Sequence record: OQ174501.1
Direction: 5' to 3' (one strand)
DNA from: Escherichia phage REP2
Length of the DNA: 64,000 nucleotides
Under the pieces are notes generated by a model. The model had not been told where the DNA came from. It saw only the letters and a program-made list of their open reading frames with translations, and searched no databases. Below are positions 2,589-49,785 of the stretch, in pieces. A program made the position numbers and the translations under genes. Each line of letters starts with the position of its first letter. Position 1 is the first letter of the stretch.

Positions 2589-2775
2589 CATTAATGATGA
2601 ATTCATAGCAAACATTGATTATACCGAAGAAGATTCTAGATATGTTGGAATAATTTATATTACATCAAAAACAGCACAAGGTGTTGTTTGCATGGCTGAA
2701 TTTGATGAATACTTTTTAGATTATGATGATATGATAGAATGGTCTAAAAGATACATTAAAAGGAATCTTTTGTGA
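2512..2775 (+). CDS. hypothetical small protein, C-terminal part of the split ORF or an independent overlapping gene
   Basis: 87 aa ORF overlapping the previous ORF by 77 nt in a different frame. Confidence 0.35.
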   Translation: MTHLNHYEIWLYLVLRMHTVKFSTFDINDEFIANIDYTEEDSRYVGIIYITSKTAQGVVCMAEFDEYFLDYDDMIEWSKRYIKRNLL

Positions 2776-4460
2776 AGAATTTTAAACTAAACCGAGTTAG
2801 GTATCAAAATATAATGTCAGTAGGTGGAAATCCTATTGACATTCAATTAGATAAGGTTCAAAAAACTCTTATTACTGGACGAAATGGCGGTGGTAAGTCT
2901 ACTATGTTAGAAGCCATCACATTTGGGCTTTTTGGCAAGCCATTTCGTGATGTAAAGAAAGGTCAATTAATAAACAGCACAAATAAGAAAGAACTTTTAG
3001 TTGAACTGTGGATGGAATATGATGAGAAAAAGTACTATATCAAAAGAGGACAAAAACCAAACGTTTTCGAAATCACCGTTAACGGTACACGTCTTAATGA
3101 ATCTGCCAGCAGTAAAGATTTCCAAGCAGAATTTGAACAGCTTATCGGAATGTCATATGCCAGTTTCAAGCAGATTGTTGTCCTTGGTACAGCAGGGTAT
3201 ACCCCTTTCATGGGTTTGTCGACCCCTGCGCGAAGAAAGCTTGTGGAAGACCTGCTTGAGGTAGGAACATTAGCTGAAATGGATAAGCTTAATAAAGCAC
3301 TAATACGTGAATTAAATTCGCAGAACCAAGTGCTTGATGTTAAAAAAGATAGTATTATCCAACAAATTAAAATATATAATGATAACGTTGAACGCCAGAA
3401 AAAATTAACGGGTGACAACCTTACACGTCTACAAAATATGTATGATGATTTGGCAAAAGAAGCTAGAACGCTAAAATCGGAAATAGAAGAAGCTAACGAA
3501 AGATTAGTTAATATTGTTTTGGATGAAGACCCGACTGATGCATTTAATAAAATCGGTCAAGAAGCAGTTTTAATTAAATCAAAAATTGACTCGTATAATA
3601 AAGTCATTAATATGTATCACGAAGGTGGATTATGTCCAACCTGTTTGTCACAATTAAGTTCCGGTGATAAAGTTGTTTCTAAAATTAAAGATAAAGTTTC
3701 TGAATGTACGCATTCGTTTGAACAGCTTTCAACACACCGTGATAATTTAAAAGTTCTTGTTGATGAATACCGAGATAATATTAAAACTCAGCAGTCGTTG
3801 GCAAATGATATTCGCAATAAAAAGCAATCTCTAATCACGACGGTAGATAAAGCTAAAAAAGTTAAAGCAGCTATAGAAAAAGCATCTTCTGAGTTTATTG
3901 ACCATGCTGATGAAATAGCACTGCTTCAAGAAGAACTTGATAAAATTGTTAAGACAAAAACTAATTTAGTAATGGAAAAATACCACCGAGGAATTTTGAC
4001 TGATATGCTCAAAGATTCTGGTATTAAAGGTGCTATTATTAAAAAGTACATTCCATTATTTAATAAGCAGATTAACCATTATCTTAAAATAATGGAAGCG
4101 GATTATGTGTTTACATTAGATGAAGAATTTAATGAGACAATTAAATCCCGTGGTCGTGAAGATTTTAGTTATGCTTCATTCAGTCAAGGTGAAAAAGCAC
4201 GAATTGATATTGCTCTTTTATTTACTTGGCGTGATATTGCTGAAAAAGTTTCAGGTGTTAAAATAAGTTGTTTATTTCTTGATGAAGTGTATGACGGTGC
4301 ATTTGATGCTGAAGGCATTAAAAATGTAGCTAAAATTTTAGATGGTTTGAAGGATACCAACTTCTTCATAATTTCGCATAAAGACCATGATCCGCAGGAT
4401 TATGGACAGCATATTAAAATGGAAAAAGTTGGTAGATTTAGTGTTGCCACTATTAATTAA
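2772..4460 (+). CDS. 46: recombination endonuclease subunit gp46 (Rad50/SbcC-like ATPase)
   Basis: 562 aa; Walker A GRNGGGKST, long central coiled-coil, zinc-hook-like CPTC, C-terminal LFLDEV signature region; apparent GTG start. Confidence 0.9.
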   Translation: MKNFKLNRVRYQNIMSVGGNPIDIQLDKVQKTLITGRNGGGKSTMLEAITFGLFGKPFRDVKKGQLINSTNKKELLVELWMEYDEKKYYIKRGQKPNVFEITVNGTRLNESASSKDFQAEFEQLIGMSYASFKQIVVLGTAGYTPFMGLSTPARRKLVEDLLEVGTLAEMDKLNKALIRELNSQNQVLDVKKDSIIQQIKIYNDNVERQKKLTGDNLTRLQNMYDDLAKEARTLKSEIEEANERLVNIVLDEDPTDAFNKIGQEAVLIKSKIDSYNKVINMYHEGGLCPTCLSQLSSGDKVVSKIKDKVSECTHSFEQLSTHRDNLKVLVDEYRDNIKTQQSLANDIRNKKQSLITTVDKAKKVKAAIEKASSEFIDHADEIALLQEELDKIVKTKTNLVMEKYHRGILTDMLKDSGIKGAIIKKYIPLFNKQINHYLKIMEADYVFTLDEEFNETIKSRGREDFSYASFSQGEKARIDIALLFTWRDIAEKVSGVKISCLFLDEVYDGAFDAEGIKNVAKILDGLKDTNFFIISHKDHDPQDYGQHIKMEKVGRFSVATIN

Positions 4461-5170
4461 TGTTTGTGCTTACAGTTATCATTATGCCACCTTGATAAAT
4501 TTCCGAAAGTGGTAACTTTACCGCAATGGACGCAAGTACCAGTCTTTTCAGTTTTCTTGCGTCCATTTGGATTTTTCTTGCAGAAATTTCTATGCGCTGC
4601 GATAACGCATTTCTTGCCTATCATTCCGCAGAATTCGCAGGATGTTTCTTCAAGAACGATTGCTTTAAGCCCGTTTGAGATATTATTTCTGTGTTCTTTA
4701 GACATTGGTGGTCTAACTTTAGGATTAGGGTGATTTGGGCAGTTATCAAAATGCCAACGATTCATATTCCCGCTTAATCCAGACTTACCGCAATGAGGAC
4801 AAGTTAGTCTTGCTTTATTAGCTACTGCATCAGACATTTTCTTTCGTGTCTCTTGGGAGAATTCTTTGTTCTTTTCTATTTCCCAGAGTTTACGACGAAT
4901 CCAACCGAAAGTTTTATTGTTGCGTTTAGCGTATTTCGTAGAAACTGTCATCATGTTAGCAGCATAGACTAATTTTGGTTCAGAAGGATAAATTTTTACT
5001 AAAAGTTGATGAGCTACATAGTGCTCTTCTGGTGTTAAATCTACTAAGTTTGAAGCATCATCACTTCCATTTAAACAGCGCGGTATAATGTGATGAGATT
5101 CAGTATAACAATCAAGTTTTCGAGATTTAGCATTAGAGATTAACTTTTCATAAATTAGTTTATAATTCAT
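4457..5170 (-). CDS. free-standing HNH family homing endonuclease with three C-terminal CxxC zinc-finger repeats
   Basis: 237 aa on the opposite strand to all neighbours; HNH motif SHHIIPRCLNGSDDASNLVDLTPEEHYVAH; repeats CPHCG..RWHFDNC; SD AAGGAT upstream of the ATG. Confidence 0.7.
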   Translation of the reverse strand: MNYKLIYEKLISNAKSRKLDCYTESHHIIPRCLNGSDDASNLVDLTPEEHYVAHQLLVKIYPSEPKLVYAANMMTVSTKYAKRNNKTFGWIRRKLWEIEKNKEFSQETRKKMSDAVANKARLTCPHCGKSGLSGNMNRWHFDNCPNHPNPKVRPPMSKEHRNNISNGLKAIVLEETSCEFCGMIGKKCVIAAHRNFCKKNPNGRKKTEKTGTCVHCGKVTTFGNLSRWHNDNCKHKH

Positions 5171-5221
5171 AATATATCCTTTTGATACAGCGAGTGATAA
5201 ACATATTTATACGGAGGAACT

Positions 5222-12495: not shown

Positions 12496-13236
12496 ATGAT
12501 TAGTGACTCTATGACAGTTGAAGAAATCCGTCTTCATTTGGGGCTTGCATTAAAAGAAAAAGATTTCGTAGTTGATAAAACTGGCGTTAAAACTATTGAA
12601 ATTATTGGCGCATCATTTATAGCAGATGAACCGTTTATTTTTGGCGCTCTTAATGATGAATACATTCAGCGTGAACTTGAATGGTATAAATCTAAGAGCT
12701 TGTTCGTTAAAGATATTCCGGGTGAAACACCGAAGATTTGGCAACAAGTAGCATCTTCTAAAGGTGAAATTAACTCGAATTATGGCTGGGCTATCTGGTC
12801 AGAAGATAACTATGCCCAGTATGATATGTGTTTAGCTGAACTTGGTCAAAATCCTGATTCTCGACGTGGTATCATGATTTATACTCGTCCATCCATGCAA
12901 TTTGACTACAATAAAGATGGTATGTCAGATTTCATGTGTACTAATACAGTACAGTACCTGATTCGTGATAAGAAAGTCAATGCGGTTGTTAGCATGAGAA
13001 GCAATGATTGCTGGGCAGGCTATCGTAATGATTATGCTTGGCAAAAATACGTACTAGATAAATTAGTATCTGATTTGAATGCAGGCGACCCATCGCGGCA
13101 ATATAAAGCAGGTTCTATTATATGGAACGTTGGAAGTCTTCATGTGTACGAAAATCAGTTTTATTTAGTTGACCATTGGTGGAACACCGGTGAGACTCAT
13201 ATTGCTAAAAAGGATTATACTGGAAAATGGAAGTAA
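12496..13236 (+). CDS. 42: dCMP hydroxymethylase gp42
   Basis: 246 aa; thymidylate-synthase-like fold signatures; T4 synteny and size. Confidence 0.9.
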   Translation: MISDSMTVEEIRLHLGLALKEKDFVVDKTGVKTIEIIGASFIADEPFIFGALNDEYIQRELEWYKSKSLFVKDIPGETPKIWQQVASSKGEINSNYGWAIWSEDNYAQYDMCLAELGQNPDSRRGIMIYTRPSMQFDYNKDGMSDFMCTNTVQYLIRDKKVNAVVSMRSNDCWAGYRNDYAWQKYVLDKLVSDLNAGDPSRQYKAGSIIWNVGSLHVYENQFYLVDHWWNTGETHIAKKDYTGKWK

Positions 13237-13867
13237 ATGTGCCACATGTTTATAAGTATAAACATCCTAAAACTAAAAAGTGGTATATAGGAAGTCATGA
13301 TGGTCACAACCCGAATTATGATGGTTCGGGTGTAGTTTGGCAACATGCTAAAAAGAAATATGGAATAAAATCCTTTAATAAAGAAATATTATATGAAGGA
13401 CCAATGTTTAGACAGGTTGAAGAAATTATTTTAACTTGTTTAGATGCTGCTAATTGTCCGGATTCATATAATTTAAAGAATGAAGCATGGGGAGGAAGTT
13501 TTCCAGGCAAATTAAATGGAATGTACGGTAAAAACTATCTCCAGAAGAAAGATATAAGTGCGGAAATGCCTTTCGTGGAATCAAGCGTCCTGATCATTCT
13601 AAAAGAATGAAAGGCGAAGGTAATCCAATGTATGGTAAAAATGAGCAGGCATATGGAATTATAAATCGAGCCAAGGAAAATTCTGGTAAAACTTATGAAG
13701 AAATTTTTGGCGTAGAAAAAGCTAAAATAATTAAAGAAACGATGTCTAAAAATCGTAAAGGAAAACCTCATAATTTGATAGAAAAAATATGTCCGCATTG
13801 CGGACTAAAAGGACGTGGGCCAAATATGACAAGATACCATTTTGACAAATGTAAGGCACTTAAATGA
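13227..13867 (+). pseudogene. GIY-YIG homing endonuclease (seg-like) interrupted by a frameshift (frame 0 13227-13610, frame +2 13532-13867)
   Basis: N-terminal VYKYKHPKTKKWYIGS GIY-YIG motif; NUMOD-like GMYGKN / GNPMYGKN repeats continue across a frame change at the A5 run 13530-13534; C-terminal CPHCG..RYHFDKC zinc finger. Confidence 0.6.
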
Positions 13868-14706
13868 TTCAATTCGTAATTCCAAGTTATCAGCGTGTAG
13901 GGGCAGTTTCTGCCCTTAATATGTTTCCGACTGATTATGAACCCCATATTGTAGTGCGTGAACACGAAGAAAAAGCTTATTATGATGCTTATGGGTCTAG
14001 AGCTAAAATTATAACTATTCCTGATGATGTAAACGGAATTGCCGGTACTCGTAAAGCAATTACTGATATGTATGCAGGCCAACGAATCTGGATGATTGAC
14101 GATGATACTACTATTCGTATGAGTTCAATGCGAAAAAGAGATGACCGTCGTTGCGTGGATAAAGTCAATCAATTGACTCATGAACAGTTCTATGAATTGA
14201 TTCAATACGTCGAAGATGCCATGGATTGCGGGTATTATCACGGTCATGCTCGCCTACCAATTTTTAAAATTACTTCATCTTGGGGTAATTATCGTGAAAA
14301 TTCATATGGATTCACGAATACATGGTATGACCTTGGAAAACTTACGACAGAACAAATTGGGTATGGAAAAATTGATTTGTGCGAAGATATGTATGCATTT
14401 CTTAATTTAATTAATCAAGGTTATCCGCATTTGGCCTTGTTCAAATATCTGGTTGTATCTGGAAAAGCGCAAGCTCCTGGTGGGTGTAGTTCAATTCGTA
14501 GTAATTCTAAACATAATAGAGCGCTTGAGCAAATCAATAGAGAGTTTCCAGAGCAAGCTCGTTGGAAAACTTCTAATATCGAAAAACGAAAATCGTTGGG
14601 TGAAGAAGACGAGCCATTAAAGGTTCTTCGCATGTGTGTTTCGCGTAAAGAAAAATCAGAAGCATTTCATAAGTTTAATGCTATTCATCCAATAGCAGTT
14701 GATTAA
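13864..14706 (+). CDS. putative GT-A fold (GT2-like) glycosyltransferase, candidate DNA hydroxymethylcytosine sugar transferase
   Basis: 280 aa; N-terminal FVIPSYQR, acidic IITIPDD and DXD-type WMIDDDT motifs; occupies the slot between gene 42 and uvsX where T4 has beta-gt. Confidence 0.55.
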   Translation: MIQFVIPSYQRVGAVSALNMFPTDYEPHIVVREHEEKAYYDAYGSRAKIITIPDDVNGIAGTRKAITDMYAGQRIWMIDDDTTIRMSSMRKRDDRRCVDKVNQLTHEQFYELIQYVEDAMDCGYYHGHARLPIFKITSSWGNYRENSYGFTNTWYDLGKLTTEQIGYGKIDLCEDMYAFLNLINQGYPHLALFKYLVVSGKAQAPGGCSSIRSNSKHNRALEQINREFPEQARWKTSNIEKRKSLGEEDEPLKVLRMCVSRKEKSEAFHKFNAIHPIAVD

Positions 14707-46839: not shown

Positions 46840-49785
46840 TTAGAATTTAAAATATTTACTAATTTTGCGAGCAATTTTAGTAAAGAAAGGAGTTTTCAAT
46901 TCTTTAATTTCTTCACTCATTTCCTGAATAGCCTTAATTAAAAGAGCATTCACAGCAGAGTTAGAAATTGTCAGAACATCAGATCCATCAACTTCAACTT
47001 TAGATACAGCTTCCGGTAATTCCTTTTCAAGGTCCTGAGCAATAATACCAACTTCACGTTTAATAACGCTACGGTCTTTAATAGACTTAACTTTATCGTA
47101 AATATAAACTTTCAGTCGGCATACTTTTTCGACTGCTCCATATTCTAATTCTTCTTTATTAATCTTGAGACGGGAGTCAGAACGAATATACACATCGCTA
47201 AAGCTACCATTTCCTGGTGTATAAAAGAATCCATCATGATGGAATTCAAACACAGCTTGTGGGTGTCCAGCATCAGGAGAAGCCTCCGTGGATCCGACAC
47301 GAATGATTGCTTGCCCCCACTGTGATGGAATACGACGCATACCAAAGTCAACAGCGGTGCTATATCCTTGATTGGTTATAACGCTTCTTGCTTTAAGAAT
47401 AGGATAATAACAATCCTGTGAAACATAACCATGATCAACGAATAATGGAGCTTCTACTCGCCATTGGTTGCCCCAATCACCCGGTTGTCTAGCAATCCAT
47501 CCAGAACCGTTAATGTGTACACGGTCGCGGTTAACGTTAACCATTGCGGTATTTTGCGGGTTTAACGCAATCTCACCATTGTTTGTGATATGTACTGCCG
47601 CCTGAGAAGCATAGCTATAAAATGCTAGCGAATTATCAGCACCACCCTTGCCAATATACCAGTTACCAGTCCCGTCTATGTCACCGCGAATATGCAAAGA
47701 ATTACTAGCAGTTGTTGATAATACAATAGAATCATTAGGTGCATTGATTGTTAACCGACCTGTCATCGTATCACCGCCTTTACCTACGCGAGTATTCAAG
47801 GCAGCATCTAAATTTGTCGCATTGTTATATTTCTTCCAGATTGAACCGGCAATATTACCATCTGTATTAAGGAACGCATCACCGACATATACACGTCCTG
47901 GAGATTTAAAATAACCTGACGGCATGAAAGTCCATTGTTTTAACCCATCTGCTGTTCCATTAGCGGATAAATCACCCTGAGCAATGATCTTATATTCGGA
48001 TGTACCTATAGCCATACCAGTGGCAAAGGTGATATTACTTACAGTATTTTTCTGTTTAACAATTGGCGCAAACTGGTTTTTATTTGAATCGTCAATAGCC
48101 TGATATAATGGCGCAATGGTAGTATTCTGATTTGCGTAAGTATTAGAACCAGAACCGCTAGCAGGGGCTTGAATATATGCTCCTGGAGCAAGTGAAATTT
48201 TCTGATTAGCACCAAGATTAACAGCAGCAGTGATATTCAGCAATCCCCTAAAGTTTTGTTGAGCAGTCCAAGTATGTGATCCGTCTTCAAGAACAACACG
48301 GCGACAAGTATTAGTCCTACTTCCTGGATTACCAGCGATACGAACAACGAAATAACGGTAGTTTGTCTGGGATACAGTACCGCGCCAAACCTGAACAGTA
48401 CGCCCTGTGCCAGTGTGTTCGCTAGGACCAACGGAAAACATAACCAAGTTTCCGTCAATCGTCCCCCAATCCATATTTGCTGGCATGTTCTTTATTTTGT
48501 TCAAAGGAACGCTAAACATACTACCAGGAACAAAATCAAAGGTTTGCCAATCTAACTCCGCTAATTGAGCTTTAATACCACCCATACCCAAAGTAATTGG
48601 CAGAGAGTAAGATGTATATACTTCGTTCCATGCACCCCACGCACCACCAGTATATGCACGCTCAAAAATACGTCCGCGAGTAGTTGCGCCTGTTCCGGCA
48701 GTAGTAAATTTTTGGAAAATAGCACCACCAGAAGCACGCTGTTTAACTTCCAGCAAACCAACAATAACAGGCGGCAAACCTTCACCTGTAGGGCAGTTAA
48801 TAACGGCATCGGTGCCTAAAATATTATATAACCCAGGAGTTTTAAAATCATTAAGGTCACCATCATAGAAAGTCGCTGGTGTGCCATGACCAACCTGCTT
48901 CCATTCCTCCCACTTAGGTGCACTAGCATCCCATGCAGCAGCGAGACAACGAGTATAAACCATACCCATGCGGGTAGTATAACGCTGAGTTCTCGTGTAT
49001 AAACCACCTTCAAATATTTCTAAAAATCCTTGTGCGGCTGATCCTTCTTCTGGATAATGGCGATCAAATGATGCGATTGCGCTTGAACTGTTTCGCCATA
49101 AGCCACAATGTTCTAATTCTCCCAAGCTATCAAGGTCAATCGTTTGTGAAAGTGGACGAGTTGACGCTTGAACATTACGCCACACACCCCATGGACCATC
49201 GACGCCATTCCATTTAGCAGATAAGGAACGAATATAGACGTTACCAGATCTTACAGTATAACGCTGAGTGCCAGCAAATTGGCCGGCCACAAACACTTCT
49301 AGTACACCTACGGCATTTTCTTCTGGGAATTTATTTGCTGGTTGCGCATTTGTTGAAGTAGATTTCGACCAAACACCAAGATATTCTTCAATGGGCCCAT
49401 ACGTATCTAAATTAGCATCAGTAGGTAATTCGCCATTATTTTTTATAAATGTTGTGCTATTGACATTTATGTCAGATGGAGTTAAGGTAATGTCTTTTGA
49501 CCCATCAAAAGATATACCATTAATTTTCCTAGGTGTTTGCAATTTAGTAGCTGTGCTAGAATTTCCAATTAAAGTTCCAGTTATATTTTCTGTAACCTCT
49601 AAAGACCCATTTATAGTTCCTCCATATTTTAAACCTAATTCTATAACACTACCTGAGTCATCTTTTGTGAAAATTGTTTTATCTTTTAAGTTTATAGCCA
49701 ATTCACCTTCGGCTAATACTGAAGCAGCAGGACGTTGACCTGCAGTTTTGCTTCTTTTAAATTGTATTTGTTTTAAAGTAGCCAT
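46840..49785 (-). CDS. 37: long tail fibre distal subunit gp37
   Basis: 981 aa fibrous protein between genes 36 and 38. Confidence 0.85.

Follow-up and report, generated by a model that had tools for sequence, protein, structure and literature searches.

A probable I-TevIII-type C2HC zinc finger in the tails of a GIY-YIG and an HNH homing endonuclease gene of Escherichia phage REP2

Two free-standing homing endonuclease genes of Escherichia phage REP2 (sequence record OQ174501.1), a Seg-like GIY-YIG gene and a Mob-like HNH gene whose catalytic domains are unrelated, encode tails that carry the same kind of small Cys-Cys-His-Cys unit. We hold with high confidence that this unit is a C2HC finger like those of I-TevIII, that it is one bead in the modular tails of both homing endonucleases as part of an old and general modularity, and that the Seg-like gene is split in this phage. 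The window analyzed here is the whole stretch of 64,000 nucleotides. All three peptides that the original prediction had quoted as copies of one zinc-finger module were found in it (CPHCGLKGRGPNMTRYHFDKC, CPHCGKSGLSGNMNRWHFDNC, and CVHCGKVTTFGNLSRWHNDNC), together with a fourth, degenerate unit:

13790..13852, + strand: Seg zinc-finger unit, CPHCGLKGRGPNMTRYHFDKC, C-x2-C-x12-H-x3-C, from the motif scan; nearly invariant across the Seg-like family
4739..4801, - strand: HNH zinc-finger unit 1, CPHCGKSGLSGNMNRWHFDNC, from the motif scan; predicted beta-beta-alpha, residues 121-143
4580..4639, - strand: HNH unit 2, degenerate, CEFCGMIGKKCVIAAHRNFC, C-x2-C-x11-H-x3-C, from the loose motif scan; predicted beta-beta-alpha, residues 175-197
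4472..4534, - strand: HNH unit 3, C-terminal, CVHCGKVTTFGNLSRWHNDNC, from the motif scan; predicted beta-beta-alpha, residues 210-232

The units were located in a six-frame scan of the window with a strict pattern (C..CG-x6-9-N..R[WYF]H.D.C) and a loose pattern (C..C-x11-14-H...C). The strict pattern occurs three times in the window, compared to none in 100 shuffled sequences, and the loose pattern four times, compared to a shuffle mean of 0.14. All three strict units have the x12 spacing, whereas the degenerate HNH unit 2 has x11; unit 2 is kept as a CCHC unit in the closest relatives, and none of the four ligands of HNH unit 3 varies among 40 HNH relatives. In AlphaFold2 models, each of the four units is predicted to adopt a beta-beta-alpha fold (pLDDT ~87-95). 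In the model of the 86-aa open reading frame (ORF) that encodes the Seg unit (mean pLDDT 87), helices at residues 13-25, 30-34, and 36-50 are followed by a beta-hairpin (59-61/68-70) and a helix from residue 74, the hairpin and helix of the Seg unit itself having a pLDDT of ~88-92, and in the model of the HNH protein (pLDDT 91) a hairpin and a helix are predicted for each of its three units. No Pfam or NCBIfam model covers the finger, which gives only weak matches to generic zinc ribbons, Lar, and YnfU. A weak match to a profile of the unit at 47240-47368 (E 0.006) was dismissed, only nine residues being covered.

The two genes and their surroundings are as follows:

12496..13236: gene 42, dCMP hydroxymethylase, 5′ neighbor of the Seg-like locus
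13227..13610, + strand: 5′ fragment of the frameshifted seg-like free-standing homing endonuclease gene, 127 aa, from the ORF list
13530..13534, + strand: A5 homopolymer, site of a 1-nt deletion, from the alignment with VEc20 and ACG-C40 (A6)
13607..13867, + strand: 3′ fragment ORF, 86 aa, with a NUMOD3-like motif, three helices, and one C-terminal CCHC zinc finger
13864..14706, + strand: beta-glucosyl-HMC-alpha-glucosyltransferase gene, 3′ neighbor of the Seg-like locus
2772..4460, + strand: gene 46, neighbor of the HNH gene
4457..5170, - strand: Mob-like HNH free-standing homing endonuclease gene, 237 aa, phrog_655 (E 1.5e-68)
5204..5211, - strand: T4 late-promoter-like box, TATAAATA, perfect match, 33 nt upstream of the HNH ATG

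The Seg-like gene is located between gene 42 and the glucosyltransferase gene, and the HNH gene between gene 46 and gene 45.2, antisense to both. The start of the glucosyltransferase gene overlaps the stop of the 86-aa ORF (ATGA), so that the endonuclease gene sits between two DNA-modification genes without any intergenic space; the glucosyltransferase product (13864-14706, + strand) matches the Pfam family TAGT (TET-associated glycosyltransferase) with an E value of 5e-10. Both endonuclease regions are 100% identical to those of Escherichia phage REP3 (OQ174502.1), a river-water Tequatrovirus, and 97-99.9% identical to many further T-even-like phages. Occurrence at the two sites is patchy: the Seg-like gene has full coverage in approximately 77 of the 396 records that match its flanks, the HNH gene is present in 59 of the 504 that match its own, and T4 has neither gene at these two sites. 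Such patchy occurrence at fixed intergenic sites is the distribution expected of free-standing homing endonuclease genes, and the two genes resemble T4 SegA-E and MobA-E both in their homologous catalytic domains and in their intergenic placement between conserved genes.

The 127-aa fragment contains a Seg-type GIY-YIG catalytic domain (residues ~1-95, nt 13227-13511) and also the opening part of the first NUMOD3-like motif. A profile of the N-terminal part of the Seg-like family (first 95 residues, 32 sequences) matches T4 SegB, SegE, SegC, SegA, and SegD with E values of 1e-24 to 1e-28, SegF at 1e-10, and I-TevI at 1.5e-7, and no T4 Mob protein was matched. The full family profile matches the structure of the I-TevI catalytic domain (1LN0, E 0.007), and the Seg-like protein matches the homing endonuclease family phrog_314 (E 2e-31). 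In Pfam, no GIY-YIG match was obtained for this protein even at E<=10, and TIGR01453 scored 24 bits, below its cutoff of 56; among the relatives listed, PF19835 is present in six and PF01541 in two. Against NUMOD3 (PF07460), for which the gathering score is 20.4, the intact Seg-like protein reaches 18.0 bits; many relatives pass.

The HNH protein consists of an HNH domain (residues ~1-75, nt 4946-5170), a NUMOD3-like helix, and the three zinc-finger units. Its N-terminal profile matches T4 MobE (E 7e-37), MobB, MobD, MobC, and MobA, and no T4 Seg protein. The Pfam HNH model reaches E 0.007 and 17 bits, below its cutoff of 21.4, and NUMOD3 (PF07460) reaches 12.6 bits compared to the gathering score of 20.4; relatives of both window proteins do attain the Pfam thresholds for the catalytic domains. 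The TATAAATA box ahead of this gene, which is antisense to the early genes 46 and 45.2, suggests late transcription. Boxes of this sequence are not enriched in the window (5 found, 10 expected by chance), so it is the position of the box alone that points to a late promoter.

The close resemblance proposed for the finger units was confirmed, with identity between the Seg unit and HNH unit 1 at 13 of 21 residues, nine of which are not ligands. G5, N12, M13, R15, an aromatic residue at position 16, F18, and D19 are the conserved non-ligand residues common to both, and the signature G..N-M-x-R-[WY]-H-F-D-[NK]-C is kept across the two families. In BLASTP, the intact Seg-like protein matches the HNH protein with E values of 5e-9 and 5e-4 (two strict units), the alignment running upstream into the NUMOD3-like stretch, and residues 87-210 of the Seg-like protein match phrog_655, the family of the HNH gene itself, at E 1e-8. 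Taken together, the BLASTP matches, the phrog_655 cross-match, and the shuffle result establish that the similarity is real and extends beyond CxxC spacing. Pairwise comparison of the C-terminal regions, proposed originally as the means of distinguishing a shared module from generic CxxC spacing, thus yielded both shared non-ligand residues and a shared NUMOD3-like segment.

It could still be argued that units of only 21 residues, with four positions fixed by metal binding and weak matches to generic zinc-ribbon Pfam models, are not homologous and resemble each other by chance or by convergence of short Cys/His metal sites. Nine identities at non-ligand positions, the common NUMOD3-like segment upstream, the BLASTP and phrog_655 E values, the lack of any strict match in 100 shuffles, and a signature maintained in both families render this extremely unlikely. 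A different objection concerns timing: the two genes lie in one genome, 9 kb apart, and T-even phages recombine readily on short homologies, conditions under which one endonuclease gene might have acquired the finger of the other by recent recombination or gene conversion within this phage. At the DNA level, however, the three strict units share only 33-38 of 63 nt, which argues against a recent transfer between these two genes. Identity between units amounts to 38/63 (60%) and 33/63 positions, with many synonymous differences; near-identical DNA between units was not seen, and the finger of each gene is kept in that gene's own relatives down to ~30-40% overall protein identity. A recent copying event is accordingly given next to no weight. 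The original suggestion that the module has been shuffled between unrelated nuclease families is therefore supported as a general and ancient process, and not as a recent event within this genome.

To place the finger in a wider context, a profile of the unit (31 positions, 18 units) was searched against 1.84 billion cluster representatives. This search, a check that accompanied the original prediction, returned 9,704 protein clusters at E<=1e-3 and 1,137 at E<=1e-10, including both Seg-type GIY-YIG and Mob-type HNH proteins. The best 145 of the 9,704 matches comprise 57 Seg-type GIY-YIG proteins, 31 Mob-type HNH proteins, and 57 with neither domain, the last group including HNH_3 enzymes, a DUF7487 protein, and short proteins; there are 2-9 units per protein among the top matches. 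In proteins that could be classified, the nearest unit belongs to the same nuclease class for 67% of 440 units, compared to ~50% expected at random, and for 80 of the 440 all nearest relatives are in the other class, with up to 19 of 21 residues identical; because the units are very short, these cross-class relatives are suggestive, not conclusive, for repeated exchange. Short and strongly constrained units can also appear intermixed between families without real exchange. With that reservation, the pattern is suggestive of a module that GIY-YIG and HNH scaffolds have exchanged repeatedly in many phages, and the spread of the profile over both classes, with units intermixed, indicates that the shuffling is old and widespread rather than recent here.

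Exchange of tails can be followed within the individual families as well. While the finger is nearly constant in the Seg-like family, some members have a further unit resembling the 'RWHFDNC' units typical of HNH proteins, and two close relatives (52-54% identity) have no finger, with an unrelated C-terminus (GGGNSSAK…Y.CIK.AM..LNL.R) in its place. This C-terminus may, at a guess, be a helix-turn-helix or NUMOD1-type module, and the finger-less relatives directly exemplify the swapping of tails inside a single family. The C-terminal unit is invariant in the HNH family, many members of which have NUMOD3 repeats in place of the internal units.

Several other proteins recovered with the unit profile are of a different kind. 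One of 390 aa has four CCHC units and DUF7487 (E 2e-20) and no recognizable GIY-YIG or HNH domain; DUF7487 could represent a third type of effector combined with the finger. Many representatives of 81-124 aa have 2-3 CCHC units and no nuclease domain, and may be either stand-alone finger proteins or contig-edge fragments. In a protein of 3,179 aa, 38 stretches match the unit profile and none matches the CCHC regular expression; this protein is probably an array of C2H2-like fingers, of eukaryotic or giant-virus origin, caught via the CxxC knuckle.

The Seg-like locus forms a single 642-nt ORF of 213 aa in phages VEc20 and ACG-C40. In the window, owing to one missing A (A6 to A5), the frame shifts after GMYGK, and the tail is encoded by the 86-aa ORF, whose ATG overlaps the stop of the 127-aa ORF (ATGA). 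The deletion thus leaves the nuclease domain and the DNA-binding tail in separate, overlapping ORFs, and with its two halves uncoupled the Seg-like enzyme is probably inactive. What had been described as the tail of the GIY-YIG gene is indeed homologous to the tail of the intact gene in relatives, but constitutes an ORF of its own in this phage; likewise, the range assigned to the module (13607-13867) contains the finger but delimits the whole 86-aa ORF. The A5 allele is also found in Tequatrovirus BCH953P2 (OZ035785.1), which is 99.2% identical to REP3 over the 901-nt query. Only 2 of the 71 phage records holding this stretch, those of REP3 and BCH953P2, match A5 exactly; the other 69 fall in a 95-99% identity band and are one base longer among the matches listed.

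That the split might not be real, A5 being a sequencing error, or might not be inactivating, a -1 ribosomal slip restoring the full-length protein, is possible, if less probable than a true lesion. The change is a single base within a homopolymer and is unmatched in 69 of the 71 records, and a -1 slip on GGT AAA AAC would regenerate the wild-type GKKLSPEE exactly. Against these points, A5 is found in both REP3 and BCH953P2, whose genomes were deposited independently and are not identical at other positions, and T AAA AAC does not conform to the canonical X XXY YYZ pattern of slippery sites. The presence of A5 in both genomes would reflect either a homopolymer error that recurred or a real mutation that is shared or arose more than once. 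The Seg-like enzyme of this phage is most likely inactive if the deletion is not such a sequencing error.

The closest characterized relative of the finger is that of I-TevIII, an HNH homing endonuclease from the nrdB intron of phage RB3 (Robbins et al. 2007, PMC1865063). Each of the two CX2CX12-13HX3C fingers of I-TevIII binds approximately one zinc, Cys-to-Ala mutants in either finger lose DNA binding and cleavage while the dimer is kept, and dimerization maps to residues 194-241, beside the fingers (PMC1865063). The ligand spacing of the three strict window units is the same, and the window HNH gene, like I-TevIII, has C-terminal tandem fingers after the HNH domain. Its H26, H27, N41, and H50 do not vary among 40 HNH relatives and occupy the positions of the catalytic residues (H26, H27, N, and H) mutated in I-TevIII. 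The Seg-family profile matches the 97-aa I-TevIII remnant of T4 at E 9e-9 with both fingers aligned, the 86-aa ORF matches each finger of that remnant in BLASTP (E 7e-5 each), and the I-TevIII-like families phrog_12324 and phrog_27406 match residues 165-236 of the HNH protein. By spacing and homology, the window units are therefore classed as I-TevIII-type CCHC zinc fingers. In contrast to I-TevIII, which is intron-encoded and has two fingers, the window HNH gene is free-standing and has three units, and the second carrier of the finger in the window is a GIY-YIG enzyme.

Other known systems are more distant. NUMODs, as described by Sitbon and Pietrokovski (2003) according to the citation in PMC1564403, are short DNA-binding modules common to GIY-YIG, HNH, and other homing endonucleases, in variable numbers. 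The tails studied here are similar in that NUMOD3-like segments precede the fingers in both genes, but the finger belongs to none of the Pfam NUMOD families and the NUMOD3 matches in the window are below the gathering score. The Seg-like gene also recalls I-TevI, the GIY-YIG enzyme of the T4 td intron, as a phage GIY-YIG homing endonuclease with a zinc finger in its tail; unlike the window units, the candidate site of I-TevI in the T4 sequence is Cys-only (CKCG…CSKC), and a C..C-x10-15-H...C scan of T4 I-TevI gave no match. Within T4, the finger is absent from SegA-G and MobA-D and is carried only by the I-TevIII remnant (twice) and by nrdB.1. The C-x2-C-x12-H-x3 spacing, the predicted fold, and the tandem arrays resemble the C2H2 and C2HC-variant beta-beta-alpha fingers of eukaryotic transcription factors, although the last ligand is Cys rather than the His of classical C2H2 fingers and the window units have no TGEKP-type linker. 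No significant match was obtained when the PDB was searched by fold or by sequence, the weak best ones being CTCF, ZFAT, Miz-1, and the C2HC finger of ZNF512 (CTCF-type arrays, E 0.04), and the unit profile found only marginal C2H2 matches among PDB sequences, through the CxxC knuckle. None of the literature searched was found to describe this finger explicitly for Seg-like GIY-YIG enzymes.

By analogy with the modular design of T4 endonucleases (PMC2988022, PMC1865063, PMC10448857), we infer zinc binding, DNA binding, and homing for the two enzymes as follows. Each unit would hold one Zn2+ through Cys, Cys, His, and Cys, and the NUMOD3-like helix and the finger would form a 'beads-on-a-string' tail that anchors the enzyme on a long target. 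This target would be near the insertion site of the enzyme's own gene, in phages that do not have it, where the tethered catalytic domain would cut and recombinational repair would copy the nuclease gene across. The fingers might instead be structural, setting distance or serving as a linker as in I-TevI, or aiding dimerization as the C-terminal region of I-TevIII does. The I-TevI finger is located in the linker, which it orders, and is a distance determinant that is dispensable for binding DNA (PMC2988022), and the dimerization residues of I-TevIII adjoin its fingers (PMC1865063). However, the I-TevIII finger mutants lose DNA binding and remain dimeric, and terminal units in tandem arrays of 2-9 fit DNA-reading arrays better than a single spacer; a purely structural role is thus considered unlikely, and a DNA-binding role is preferred.

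That GIY-YIG and HNH homing endonucleases have DNA-binding modules in common was already established (PMC1865063; for NUMODs, PMC1564403), and this type of finger has been characterized in I-TevIII, so that the case described here is an ordinary instance of a known mix-and-match design and leaves current understanding unchanged. Its value is as a clean, quantified illustration of how small DNA-binding beads, passed between catalytic scaffolds that are unrelated to each other, may give phage homing endonucleases new targets. With ~9,700 protein clusters, the I-TevIII-type C2HC finger is abundant, but no Pfam model is dedicated to it and it seems to have no solved structure. Most of its carriers are labeled 'hypothetical protein', and defining the finger as a family would improve phage annotation; the modules could also serve as compact parts for engineered nucleases.

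A more speculative use for such tails, which we regard as quite improbable, is that those detached from their nuclease domains are kept as working DNA-binding proteins, either sitting on the target site of the parental endonuclease and shielding it from cleavage by incoming relatives or repressing transcription. Candidates may include the 86-aa ORF of the window, T4 nrdB.1, the 97-aa T4 I-TevIII remnant, and many of the 81-124-aa metagenome proteins; a decayed endonuclease would in each case have given rise to a domesticated 'anti-homing' factor. T4 nrdB.1 (NC_000866, 139716-139967), an 83-aa protein annotated as 'hypothetical', is encoded directly downstream of mobE and consists of a NUMOD3-like stretch and one CCHC unit, CPHCGKKVNKGNALRWHYDKC, with a BLASTP E value of 7e-9 to the window HNH protein. 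T4 MobE is short (141 aa), and nrdB.1 seems to be its C-terminal DNA-binding tail in detached form, in parallel to the split of the Seg-like gene in the window.
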